Origin: Escherichia coli
GTDB taxonomy: Bacteria; Pseudomonadota; Gammaproteobacteria; Enterobacterales; Enterobacteriaceae
NCBI RefSeq assembly: GCF_045037415.1
Contig: NZ_CP173438.1
Length of the DNA stretch: 64,000 nt
Strand: one strand, 5' to 3'
Made by a program: the position numbers and the translations under genes. Of the stretch, positions 34,025 through 43,718 are shown one piece after another (positions within the stretch are counted from its first letter, which is position 1; each line of letters begins with the position of its first letter). The notes beneath the pieces were generated by a model. That model worked only from the letters and a program-made list of their open reading frames with translations, did not search any database and was not told where the DNA came from.

Positions 34025-34684
34025 ATGGACCTGATTTATTTCCTCATCGATTTTATCCTGCACATTGACGTGCATCTGGCAGAGCTGGTCGCGGAGTACG
34101 GCGTCTGGGTTTATGCCATTTTGTTCTTAATTTTGTTCTGTGAAACCGGTCTGGTGGTAACGCCGTTTTTACCGGGTGATTCATTGCTGTTTGTTGCCGG
34201 AGCGTTGGCATCACTGGAGACCAACGATCTCAACGTCCATATGATGGTGGTGCTGATGCTGATCGCCGCGATTGTGGGTGACGCGGTCAATTACACTATC
34301 GGGCGGTTGTTCGGTGAAAAGTTATTCAGTAATCCCAATTCGAAAATTTTCCGTCGCAGTTATCTCGACAAAACCCATCAGTTTTATGAGAAACATGGCG
34401 GCAAAACGATTATTCTCGCCCGTTTTGTGCCGATCGTCAGAACGTTCGCCCCGTTTGTTGCGGGAATGGGCCACATGTCGTACCGTCATTTCGCCGCTTA
34501 TAACGTGATTGGCGCACTGTTGTGGGTACTGCTTTTTACCTACGCAGGCTATTTCTTCGGCACGCTCCCCTTCATTCAGAGCAACCTTAAACTGATGATT
34601 GTTGGCATTATTTTTGTTTCAATATTGCCAGGTGTTTTCGAATTTATTCGCCACAAACGCGCAGCGGCACGCGCCGCAAAATAA
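34025..34684 (+). CDS. dedA: DedA-family inner membrane protein
   Basis: 219 aa, DedA/SNARE-associated membrane domain. Confidence 0.9.
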
Positions 34685-40321: not shown

Positions 40322-40891
40322 ATGAAACGACTCATTGTAGGCATCAGCGGTGCCAGCGGCGCGATTTATGGCGTGCGTTTATTACAGGTTCTGCGCGATG
40401 TCACAGATATCGAAACGCATCTGGTAATGAGCCAGGCGGCGCGCCAGACCTTATCCCTCGAAACGGATTTTTCCCTGCGCGAAGTGCAGGCGTTAGCTGA
40501 TGTGACACACGATGCGCGCGATATTGCTGCCAGCATTTCTTCCGGTTCTTTCCAGACGTTGGGGATGGTGATTTTACCCTGTTCAATCAAAACCCTGTCC
40601 GGCATTGTCCATAGCTATACTGATGGCTTACTGACCCGTGCGGCAGATGTGGTGCTGAAAGAGCGTCGCCCGTTGGTGCTCTGCGTGCGTGAAACGCCAC
40701 TGCACTTAGGCCATCTGCGTTTAATGACTCAGGCGGCAGAAATCGGTGCGGTGATTATGCCTCCCGTTCCGGCGTTTTATCATCGCCCACAATCCCTTGA
40801 TGATGTGATAAATCAGACGGTTAATCGTGTTCTTGACCAGTTTGCGGTAACCCTTCCTGAAGATCTCTTTGCCCGCTGGCAGGGCGCATAA
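40322..40891 (+). CDS. ubiX: Flavin prenyltransferase UbiX
   Basis: 189 aa, N-terminal GISGASGA flavoprotein motif. Confidence 0.9.
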   Translation: MKRLIVGISGASGAIYGVRLLQVLRDVTDIETHLVMSQAARQTLSLETDFSLREVQALADVTHDARDIAASISSGSFQTLGMVILPCSIKTLSGIVHSYTDGLLTRAADVVLKERRPLVLCVRETPLHLGHLRLMTQAAEIGAVIMPPVPAFYHRPQSLDDVINQTVNRVLDQFAVTLPEDLFARWQGA

Positions 40892-41071
40892 CTCCGCTGT
40901 TGCCCTGTTTCAGGGCAATTTTGCAACCGCGATCAAATCCTCGACATTTTGTTTCTGCCATTCAATCGAAACGCTGCGATTCAACCGCTATACCTGCTAT
41001 CTTCAACTTTAGGACAATAATGCAACTTCTTATTAACATATTTAACGTTGAATGTTACTGCTGTCGTCAAG

Positions 41072-41088
41072 ATGGCATAAGACCTGCA
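41072..41088 (+). promoter_or_regulatory. Sigma-54 (-24/-12) promoter upstream of argT
   Basis: TGGCAT-aagac-CTGCA, with GG and GC separated by 10 nt, about 70 bp upstream of the argT start. Confidence 0.45.
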
Positions 41089-41156
41089 TGAAAGAGCCTG
41101 CAAACACACAACACAATACACAACATAAAAAAGCCATTTTCACTTGAGGGTTATGT

Positions 41157-41939
41157 ATGAAGAAGTCGATTCTCGCTCTGTCTTTGTTAGTCGGTCTCTC
41201 CGCAGCGGCTTCCAGCTATGCGGCGCTACCGGAGACGGTACGTATCGGAACCGATACCACCTACGCACCGTTCTCATCGAAAGATGCCAAAGGTGACTTT
41301 GTTGGCTTTGATATCGATCTCGGTAACGAGATGTGCAAACGGATGCAGGTGAAATGTACCTGGGTTGCCAGCGACTTTGACGCGCTGATCCCCTCACTGA
41401 AAGCGAAAAAAATCGACGCCATTATTTCGTCGCTCTCCATTACCGATAAACGTCAGCAGGAGATTGCTTTCTCCGACAAGCTGTACGCCGCAGATTCTCG
41501 TTTGATTGCCGCCAAAGGTTCACCGATTCAGCCAACGCTGGATTCACTGAAAGGTAAACATGTTGGTGTGCTGCAGGGATCAACCCAGGAAGCTTACGCT
41601 AACGAGACCTGGCGTAGCAAAGGCGTGGATGTGGTGGCCTATGCCAACCAGGATTTAGTCTATTCCGATCTGGCTGCAGGACGTCTGGATGCTGCGTTAC
41701 AAGATGAAGTTGCTGCCAGCGAAGGTTTCCTTAAGCAACCCGCCGGTAAAGATTTCGCCTTTGCAGGCCCATCAGTGAAAGACAAAAAATACTTCGGTGA
41801 CGGCACCGGTGTAGGGCTACGTAAAGATGATGCGGAACTGACGGCTGCGTTTAATAAGGCGCTTGGCGAGCTGCGTCAGGACGGCACCTACGACAAGATG
41901 GCGAAAAAGTATTTTGACTTTAATGTCTACGGTGACTGA
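41157..41939 (+). CDS. argT: Lysine/arginine/ornithine periplasmic binding protein ArgT
   Basis: 260 aa with signal peptide; about 70% identical to HisJ encoded just downstream. Confidence 0.9.
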
Positions 41940-41997
41940 TACGTCGCAGGGAAGCTGTACCTGATGGAATGATCATCATGGTGCACGCCAGGTTTGT

Positions 41998-42014
41998 TGC
42001 ACTATCGTGGTGCA
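41998..42014. promoter_or_regulatory. NtrC-like dyad in argT-hisJ intergenic region
   Basis: TGCACtatcgtGGTGCA resembles TGCACCA-N3-TGGTGCA. Confidence 0.3.
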
Positions 42015-42159
42015 TTGAAATGCATACTTAAGCATTTTTAATGAAAAATAATACGTCTAGCGGGGCGGGATATTTTGCCTTGATGGTCAATTTTATGGCA
42101 CGATAAGTGTAACAAACCTGTAAATATTCCCGATAAAAAGACTGTCAGTTGAGGACATT

Positions 42160-42942
42160 ATGAAAAAACTGGTGCTATCGCTCTCTCTGGTTCTGGCCTT
42201 CTCCAGCGCAACTGCAGCATTTGCTGCGATTCCGCAAAACATCCGCATCGGTACCGATCCGACCTATGCGCCATTTGAATCAAAAAATTCACAAGGTGAA
42301 CTGGTTGGCTTCGATATCGATCTGGCCAAGGAGTTGTGCAAACGCATCAATACGCAATGTACGTTTGTCGAAAACCCACTGGATGCGTTAATCCCGTCCT
42401 TAAAAGCGAAGAAGATTGACGCCATCATGTCATCGCTTTCCATTACGGAAAAACGTCAGCAAGAAATAGCCTTCACCGACAAACTGTACGCAGCCGATTC
42501 TCGTCTGGTGGTGGCGAAAAATTCCGACATTCAGCCGACAGTCGAATCGCTGAAAGGCAAACGGGTAGGCGTATTGCAGGGCACCACCCAGGAGACGTTC
42601 GGTAACGAACACTGGGCACCAAAAGGCATTGAAATCGTTTCTTATCAGGGGCAGGACAACATTTATTCTGACCTGACTGCCGGACGTATTGATGCCGCGT
42701 TCCAGGATGAGGTCGCAGCCAGCGAAGGTTTCCTCAAACAACCCGTCGGTAAAGATTACAAATTCGGTGGCCCGTCTGTTAAAGATGAAAAACTGTTTGG
42801 CGTAGGGACCGGCATGGGCCTGCGTAAAGAAGATAACGAACTGCGCGAGGCACTGAACAAAGCCTTTGCCGAAATGCGCGCTGACGGTACTTACGAGAAA
42901 TTAGCGAAAAAGTACTTCGATTTTGATGTTTATGGTGGTTAA
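42160..42942 (+). CDS. hisJ: Histidine periplasmic binding protein HisJ
   Basis: 260 aa with signal peptide; first gene of hisJQMP. Confidence 0.9.
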
Positions 42943-43031
42943 TCGCCATCGGTGAAAGAAAGCCCGCTCCCTTCGGGTAACCGGAGGGAGACAAGAGGCG
43001 GTAATTCACCACACACGACAGGACAGGCAGC

Positions 43032-43718
43032 ATGTTGTATGGGTTTTCAAGTGTTATTTTACAGGGTGCGCTCGTCACGCTGGAGCTGGCTATCAGCTCT
43101 GTAGTGCTCGCTGTAATCATCGGTTTAATTGGCGCTGGCGGTAAGCTCTCACAAAATCGGCTTTCGGGCCTTATTTTCGAAGGGTACACCACGCTGATTC
43201 GAGGCGTGCCGGATTTAGTATTGATGCTGCTGATTTTCTACGGTTTGCAGATTGCGCTAAACACGGTGACGGAGGCGATGGGCGTCGGGCAGATTGATAT
43301 TGATCCGATGGTCGCAGGTATTATCACTCTCGGTTTTATCTACGGTGCTTATTTTACCGAAACGTTTCGTGGCGCGTTTATGGCAGTGCCGAAAGGACAT
43401 ATAGAGGCGGCGACGGCGTTCGGTTTTACTCGTGGGCAAGTGTTTCGGCGGATCATGTTTCCGGCGATGATGCGTTACGCCCTGCCAGGCATTGGCAACA
43501 ACTGGCAGGTGATCCTCAAATCTACCGCACTGGTTTCGTTACTCGGCCTGGAAGATGTGGTCAAAGCCACGCAGCTGGCAGGCAAAAGTACCTGGGAACC
43601 GTTCTATTTCGCTATCGTCTGCGGCGTGATTTATCTTGTTTTCACCACCGTTTCCAATGGTGTGCTGCTGTTCCTTGAGCGCCGCTACTCCGTGGGTGTG
43701 AAGAGGGCTGACCTGTGA
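43032..43718 (+). CDS. hisQ: Histidine ABC transporter permease HisQ
   Basis: 228-aa ABC permease. Confidence 0.9.
   Translation: MLYGFSSVILQGALVTLELAISSVVLAVIIGLIGAGGKLSQNRLSGLIFEGYTTLIRGVPDLVLMLLIFYGLQIALNTVTEAMGVGQIDIDPMVAGIITLGFIYGAYFTETFRGAFMAVPKGHIEAATAFGFTRGQVFRRIMFPAMMRYALPGIGNNWQVILKSTALVSLLGLEDVVKATQLAGKSTWEPFYFAIVCGVIYLVFTTVSNGVLLFLERRYSVGVKRADL

Follow-up and report, generated by a model that had tools for sequence, protein, structure and literature searches.

The DNA analysed here is a window of 64,000 nucleotides from the chromosome of Escherichia coli, and the subject of this report is a pair of motifs at its argT and hisJ genes: a sigma-54 promoter upstream of argT, and a dyad in the argT-hisJ spacer that resembles a binding site for NtrC. 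The genes occur in the order ubiX-argT-hisJQMP, with the first three on the + strand. According to the list of open reading frames and the annotation of identical E. coli records, ubiX occupies 40322-40891, the coding sequence of argT (lysine/arginine/ornithine binding protein) occupies 41157-41939, and the coding sequence of hisJ (histidine binding protein), the first gene of hisJQMP, occupies 42160-42942 and is followed by hisQMP. The K-12 MG1655 counterparts of ubiX, argT and hisJ are b2311, b2310 and b2309, on the minus strand. Several E. coli chromosomes carry the segment 40850-42200 with 100% identity, and it has a match in 5,425 of 5,426 complete E. coli genomes. Comparisons across genera were made with 80 other Enterobacteriaceae species, all of them syntenic for ubiX-argT-hisJ (81 loci when the window is counted), and comparisons within the genus were made with 11 Escherichia sequences.

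The argT sigma-54 promoter is the 17-mer ATGGCATAAGACCTGCA (41072-41088, + strand), which was assigned on the basis of its pattern, its matrix score, its identity to a site found by chromatin immunoprecipitation and sequencing (ChIP-seq), and its conservation. It has the -24 GG at 41074-75 and the -12 GC at 41086-87 with the obligatory 10-nt spacing, and it reads in the sense orientation and stops 69 nt before the argT ATG (41157). The sequence TGGCATAAGACCTGCA at 41073-41088 (+) is the sole match to TGGCAYN5YTGCA in the 64 kb, where 0.21 matches are expected; since shuffling the window 100 times gave at least one match in 18 cases, the bare pattern is weak evidence. Scoring was performed with a leave-one-out sigma-54 matrix that was built from the 41 ChIP-verified intergenic sites of Bonocora et al. 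(PMC4591121), with argT omitted, and applied to both strands (127,968 positions). The argT 17-mer scored 14.84 bits and ranked 2 of 127,968, which places it in the middle of the range of the 42 verified sites.

The same 17-mer is identical to the E. coli sigma-54 ChIP-seq site OS22, which was assigned to argT and lies 58 nt from the gene start (PMC4591121), and this distance predicts that argT transcription starts at about 41099 (~41098-41099). In Salmonella LT2 the argT site TGGCATAAGACCTGCATG has the same sequence and was positive by ChIP-chip (chromatin immunoprecipitation with microarrays), and argT is one of the four experimentally established sigma-54 operons in that study (PMC3844500). 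The RpoN holoenzyme selects the ubiX-argT spacer in vitro, as seen from a peak in genomic SELEX (gSELEX; PMC8743547), and a second ChIP-seq study describes competition between sigma-54 at argT and an overlapping sigma-70 promoter (PMC4551910); our own consensus scan found no sigma-70 promoter in either the ubiX-argT or the argT-hisJ spacer. The start of argT is stated to lie about 12 nt past the GC and to need rpoN and an enhancer-binding protein (PMC6640053, PMC3844500), and argT is described as sigma-54/NtrC dependent (PMC6640053). The promoter also serves as an engineering part, argTp, whose cloned 197-bp fragment gave the top output of 12 sigma-54 promoters tested (PMC7045595). When read from its primers, the published fragment corresponds to window 40901-41097 and does not include the spacer dyad. 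The argT promoter of Hsu et al. 1991 was set aside, since that study reportedly deals with a tRNA gene that shares the name.

In terms of conservation, the argT sigma-54 element is present in all 81 loci, in most of them 72-106 nt ahead of the argT ATG, and its -12 GC is invariant (81/81). Among the Escherichia sequences the 17-mer is unchanged, while 54 of the 265 columns of the spacer vary. The preliminary description of this locus had proposed that TGGCAT-N5-CTGCA upstream of argT is a sigma-54 -24/-12 promoter, and had suggested matrix scoring and comparison with mapped E. coli and Salmonella sites as checks. The proposal was right: the site ranks second in the window at 14.84 bits, it is identical to OS22 and to the Salmonella ChIP-chip site, and sigma-54 occupies it in both organisms (PMC4591121, PMC3844500). 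The segment 41072-41088 is the argT sigma-54 promoter, and it is already documented.

The second motif is the strong NtrC dyad TGCACTATCGTGGTGCA at 41998-42014, whose centre lies at -115 from a TGGCAC element near hisJ and at +908 from the predicted argT start. It is the sole match to TGCACN7GTGCA in the window (0.05 expected; matches in 5 of 100 shuffles), and it fits 11 of the 12 positions of the 17-bp dyad TGCACC-N5-GGTGCA. A symmetric NtrC matrix was made from 13 dyads that agree with the consensus in at least 9 of 12 positions and were gathered from 9 of the 11 other NtrC-dependent K-12 promoter regions examined; the scan that collected them recovers the classical glnAp2 NtrC sites at -139 and -107. 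With this matrix the spacer dyad scored 19.35 bits, the highest of 63,984 window positions, compared to 11.96 bits for the runner-up and 19.3-19.4 bits for the glnA sites, with which it is thus level. The dyad has one change among the 11 Escherichia sequences, at a spacer position. A possible second, weak NtrC site, ATGATCATCATGGTGCA (41969-41985; centre at -144 from the hisJ-proximal element), lies 29 bp upstream of the strong dyad; only its right half-site is good, it matches 8 of 12 consensus positions (5.6 bits), and it is variable within Escherichia.

Occupancy of this dyad is supported by published ChIP-seq of NtrC in nitrogen-starved E. coli. Peak 12 of Brown et al. (2424941-2425021) was enriched 23.7-fold and labelled hisJQMP, and peak 13 (2425861-2425941), for argT, was weak (5.4-fold) and manually added (PMC4066584). 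K-12 coordinates were mapped to the window with the unique sigma-54 motif as anchor (centre 2425890 = window 41080) and checked against the K-12 annotation. Peak 12 then corresponds to 41949-42029, with the spacer dyad inside, and peak 13 corresponds to 41029-41109, with the argT sigma-54 promoter inside. The segment 41998-42014 is an NtrC site that is bound in nitrogen-starved cells and has already been documented by ChIP-seq. The preliminary description, which had taken the dyad for an NtrC site and had suggested matrix scoring for it as well, was therefore correct on this point, since the dyad is the top NtrC-matrix match of the window and lies inside peak 12. Its statement that both motifs agree with the known nitrogen regulation of argT-hisJQMP is likewise borne out by the published occupancy of sigma-54 at argT and of NtrC in the spacer.

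The TGGCAC element near hisJ is the sigma-54-like sequence ATGGCACGATAAGTGTA (42095-42111, + strand), which starts 65 nt before the hisJ ATG and overlaps the sigma-70 hisJ promoter region. It has GG at 42097-98, but its -12 dinucleotide is GT rather than GC, so that it departs from GG-N10-GC, and it scored 12.6 bits with the sigma-54 matrix (rank 4 in the window). In 79 of the 81 loci the hisJ ATG is preceded, at a distance of 64-68 nt, by TGGCA. Of the 80 loci with the element, 43 have kept the -12 GC and 37 lack it. Citrobacter and Franconibacter have a canonical hisJ sigma-54 promoter, ATGGCACGATAACTGCA (~18 bits), and canonical forms also occur in Pluralibacter, Pseudocitrobacter and others. 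Promoters with a non-GC -12 can work, as glnHp2, pspA and pspG in the ChIP table demonstrate (PMC4591121).

In most of the 80 other species the argT-hisJ spacer contains an NtrC-type site that scores 12 bits or more (7 loci are without one), and other genera have two or three strong sites there. In these species the spacer dyads fall at quantised distances of -113, -135, -165 and -177 from the TGGCAC element. The fixed distances, together with the canonical promoters of other genera, indicate that the dyad is part of an ancestral hisJ control region for NtrC and sigma-54. By its location, some 908 bp past the predicted start of argT, it does not qualify as the upstream activating site of that gene; relative to the hisJ TGGCAC element, with its GT at -12, it stands at -115. 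The preliminary description had spoken of the two motifs as bracketing argT. Both are located where it placed them, but position and conservation do not make the dyad the enhancer of argT, and the 197-bp argT fragment that lacks the dyad is highly active (PMC7045595).

NtrC-type sequences are also found upstream of argT, at the 3′ end of ubiX. One of them is the perfect palindrome TGCCCTGTTTCAGGGCA (40901-40917), which lies 10 nt after the ubiX stop with its centre at -189 relative to the argT start and is the second-best NtrC-matrix match in the window (~12 bits); it is probably a weak NtrC site and/or the hairpin of a ubiX terminator. It is invariant in the 11 Escherichia sequences, and the published argTp fragment begins exactly at it. 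Klebsiella and Raoultella have canonical dyads at the orthologous position. The corresponding hairpin (40899-40919), 8 nt after the ubiX stop, has a 9-bp stem and a 3-nt loop followed by UUUUG, with a fold z-score of -1.7; the terminator scan did not call it because its T run is only 4 long. The palindrome may thus serve equally well as the ubiX terminator, either instead or in addition. In most genera another canonical NtrC dyad lies at -220, at a spacing of 31 bp, and Salmonella and Citrobacter keep this site only in degenerate form. Escherichia has a 32-column alignment gap just past the ubiX stop (window 40892-40900), where other genera hold the -220 dyad. A very weak NtrC-like dyad, TGCCCGCTGGCAGGGCG (40870-40886; 6.7 bits), is centred at -220 from the predicted argT start inside the 3′ end of ubiX, and its function as an NtrC site is doubtful. 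The weakness of these upstream sites fits the weak NtrC ChIP signal at argT.

Downstream of the spacer dyad lies a tandem ARG-box-like operator (42019-42057), two 18-bp boxes 3 bp apart, which is the probable ArgR site of the hisJ promoter. It matches 24 of 32 positions, is the second-best tandem match in the window, and is conserved across genera. There are 4 bp between the end of the dyad at 42014 and the start of the tandem at 42019, and an alternative register of the tandem (42009-42047) overlaps the dyad. In E. coli, hisJ has a sigma-70 promoter that is weakly repressed by ArgR, through an indirect mechanism, from boxes 17 bp upstream of the -35 (PMC6640053). A terminator scan of the argT-hisJ spacer found only a weak site at 42054-42067, a 5-bp stem followed by GGATATTTTG. 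That the sole terminator-like site between argT and hisJ is weak fits read-through from argT to hisJ, and several papers treat argT-hisJQMP as one operon (including PMC8743547 and PMC9299463).

We consider it likely, with a probability of roughly 0.8, that the two motifs are established nitrogen-control elements, namely the argT sigma-54 promoter and the NtrC upstream site of the hisJ control region. In such an arrangement, sigma-54 RNA polymerase would wait on 41072-41088 as a closed complex, and when nitrogen is scarce phosphorylated NtrC would open this complex, with transcription proceeding from ~41098-41099 into argT. The argT transcripts would probably run on into hisJQMP, because no convincing terminator follows argT. 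NtrC bound at the high-affinity site 41998-42014 would occupy the upstream activating site for the hisJ control region, abutting the ArgR operator of the sigma-70 promoter, and it may activate a sigma-54 start near hisJ from a -115 geometry that is like the -108/-140 geometry of glnAp2. Because the hisJ -12 is GT in Escherichia, NtrC-driven sigma-54 transcription from this element would probably be weak. For the promoter that the dyad would serve in E. coli, we tentatively favour a weak NtrC-activated sigma-54 start at hisJ combined with read-through from argTp.

Several observations weigh against this interpretation. The E. coli spacer has one strong NtrC site, and enhancers usually have two. 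The E. coli hisJ element is without the -12 GC, and its 12.6 bits are also reached by random sequence in the window. No sigma-54 peak at hisJ is found in the E. coli ChIP-seq tables and supplements, in the gSELEX tables, or in the main text of the Salmonella study (PMC3844500). Across the comparative set the spacer NtrC sites are equally strong with or without the hisJ -12 GC (median ~17 bits), and sites that are kept where the GC is lost may have a function other than sigma-54 promoter activation. The argT-hisJ locus is missing from the peaks of the NtrC gSELEX list, as are several accepted targets. Finally, the NtrC ChIP-seq calls are imprecise: the 80-bp calls mostly sit on the sigma-54 motif, and the glnA call lies downstream of that motif and misses the known -108/-140 sites. 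An argument from these 80-bp windows that argT has no upstream NtrC site was dropped for the same reason.

The dyad might instead be a remote downstream enhancer that loops over ~908 bp to the argT sigma-54 promoter and offsets the weak upstream sites of Escherichia. NtrC sites reportedly work at a distance and from downstream, as Reitzer and Magasanik are said to have found in 1986, and the E. coli upstream sites are indeed weak (12.1 and 6.7 bits), with the -220 dyad of other genera falling in the Escherichia alignment gap. The NtrC ChIP signal, 5.4-fold and added by eye at argT versus 23.7-fold in the spacer, is in line with such an enhancer (PMC4066584). Nevertheless, the fragment 40901-41097, which lacks the dyad, was the highest of 12 sigma-54 promoters (PMC7045595), an argTp-lacZ fusion relocated to the lac locus still responds to phosphorylated NtrC, and genera with strong -220/-189 sites retain the spacer sites equally, at fixed distances to the hisJ element. 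A long-range action on argT is therefore distinctly unlikely. We regard as similarly improbable a role for the dyad at the sigma-70 hisJ promoter, where NtrC, sitting 4 bp away from the ARG boxes, would drive off or oppose ArgR and thereby derepress hisJQMP at low nitrogen. The close approach of dyad (ending at 42014) and boxes (from 42019), with overlap in the alternative register, would suit this role, as would the weak and indirect repression of hisJ by ArgR from upstream of the -35 (PMC6640053), the failure to detect sigma-54 at hisJ in the E. coli ChIP-seq and gSELEX tables, and the survival of NtrC sites after loss of the hisJ -12 GC. It leaves unexplained, however, why TGGCAC is nearly universal at a fixed distance, and why many genera have a canonical sigma-54 promoter at this place.

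That one or both motifs are functionless chance matches is hardly conceivable. The bare sigma-54 pattern does occur in 18 of 100 shuffles, and a better-scoring sigma-54 match that is absent from the published ChIP tables lies inside the dedA coding sequence. Against this, in vivo occupancy has been published for both sites (PMC4591121, PMC4066584), each ranks first or second in the window on its own matrix, and both are conserved in the 80 other species and within Escherichia, where the flanks vary. The ChIP data and the conservation together refute the chance reading. The two motifs are genuine, functional and known from earlier descriptions, which makes the finding an ordinary one.

The spacer has a feature that was found only in Escherichia, an inverted repeat whose left arm CAGGTTTGTTGCACTATCGTG (41989-42009, +) contains the left half of the NtrC dyad and whose right arm CACGATAAGTGTAACAAACCTG (42099-42120, +) covers the -12 region of the hisJ-proximal element. 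With one G-T taken as a wobble, the arms would form 21 pairs and leave one bulge. Of 300 dinucleotide-preserving shuffles, 1 gave a comparable 14-of-15 match. The segment 42089-42124 is invariant in Escherichia. The three arm variants within the genus are all transitions and for this reason give little information on the inverted repeat. A structured RNA in the argT-hisJ spacer is not claimed, as a strongly negative fold z-score is not particular to it (all eight genera tested gave -3.6 to -5.7), presumably owing to the dense palindromic protein sites of such spacers; a comparison of window 40800-43100 with Rfam returned no match at E up to 1, and a literature search on RNase III processing of argT-hisJ found nothing relevant. 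The inverted repeat might act as a processing stem in an argT-hisJ read-through RNA. An attractive origin for it would be a quasi-palindrome templated mutation that removed the -12 GC and made the 21-bp inverted repeat in the same event.

The Escherichia spacer also has a 21-column alignment gap, about two helical turns, at a place where several genera have a third NtrC dyad. This raises the possibility, which we hold only tentatively and think unlikely, that the nitrogen wiring of Escherichia has been remodelled: the -220 argT site and the third spacer site fall in gaps, the hisJ -12 GC is lost, and the dyad would be an enhancer without a canonical partner promoter that has been kept for a changed role. 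This role could be to activate the sigma-54 start despite its missing GC, to counter ArgR, or to work on argTp from the downstream side.

Other features of the window were observed in the course of the analysis. A C/A-rich stretch of the argT 5′ untranslated region (41104-41125, +) is conserved across genera and is likely a pairing region for the small RNA GcvB; Sharma et al. 2007 reportedly placed the pairing site in this exact stretch. Published work lists argT as a target of the GcvB R1 seed and reports that GcvB represses hisQ (PMC9299463). The hisJ-hisQ spacer (42943-43031) holds a G+C-rich dyad, CCCGCTCCCTTCGGGTAACCGGAGGGAG. In the ubiX-argT spacer, four blocks that lie between the -189 site and the sigma-54 promoter (40924-40945, 40968-40977, 40993-41002 and 41019-41046) show strong conservation in 16 genera, with CGATCAAATCCTCGACATTT and TTATTAACATATTTAACG as examples; no match to the IHF consensus WATCAANNNNTTR with at most one mismatch was found in this spacer, the conserved blocks included. 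In E. coli strain B27 (NZ_AP027424.1; locus L094, 2169-2570) the match to the window starts at 41087, and there is no annotated ubiX between purF and argT, so this strain appears to be without ubiX and most of the argT promoter region. The top sigma-54 matrix match of the window, TTGGCATTATTTTTGTT (34602-34618, +; 14.9 bits), lies within dedA, in the sense orientation of the coding sequence; the main-text sigma-54 ChIP-seq tables do not list it, and it probably arose by chance.

In summary, the analysis confirms textbook regulation, with argT as a standard member of the NtrC/sigma-54 regulon, and both elements had been located to the base from the sequence alone. It corrects one assignment, in that the spacer dyad is to be counted with the control region of hisJ and not taken for an argT enhancer. 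It also makes a modest comparative addition, since Enterobacteriaceae keep the hisJ TGGCAC element and the NtrC sites even where the -12 GC has been lost. These retained sites raise the question of what NtrC does at E. coli hisJ, where no sigma-54 binding has been reported.

The control region of hisJ resembles in its geometry E. coli glnAp2, in which a sigma-54 -24/-12 promoter is preceded, about 110-140 bp upstream, by 17-bp TGCACC-N5-GGTGCA dyads, with NtrC at -140/-108. Our scan gives -139/-107 for glnA and -115/-144 for the spacer sites relative to the hisJ element. It differs from glnAp2 in that the second hisJ site is weak (5.6 bits), the spacing of the two sites is 29 rather than 32 bp, and the -12 is GT. 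The argT promoter is also unlike glnAp2, because its NtrC-type sites are farther upstream (-189 and -220) and are weak in E. coli. Another close counterpart is the orthologous locus of Salmonella typhimurium with the argT and hisJ control regions argTr/dhuA, on which the Ames laboratory worked and where the argT sigma-54 sequence TGGCATAAGACCTGCATG is identical. The NtrC consensus was reportedly first defined in part from a footprint in this Salmonella histidine-transport region, in work attributed to Ames and Nikaido in 1985. The Salmonella subspecies examined differ from Escherichia in having CCGCA at the hisJ -12 and about 21 extra alignment columns in the spacer.

The hisJ-proximal element itself can be compared to E. 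coli glnHp2. Sigma-54 ChIP-seq picks up glnHp2 (OS06), which is served by several good NtrC sites (-107, -120 and -133), while the hisJ element is undetected and has one good site. The two are alike in that glnHp2, an NtrC-dependent promoter, has the non-GC -12 sequence CTGGCACGATTTTTTCA, and TGGCACGAT is common to both. Since glnHp2 works with a non-GC -12, the missing GC alone does not exclude a function for the sigma-54-like element of hisJ.

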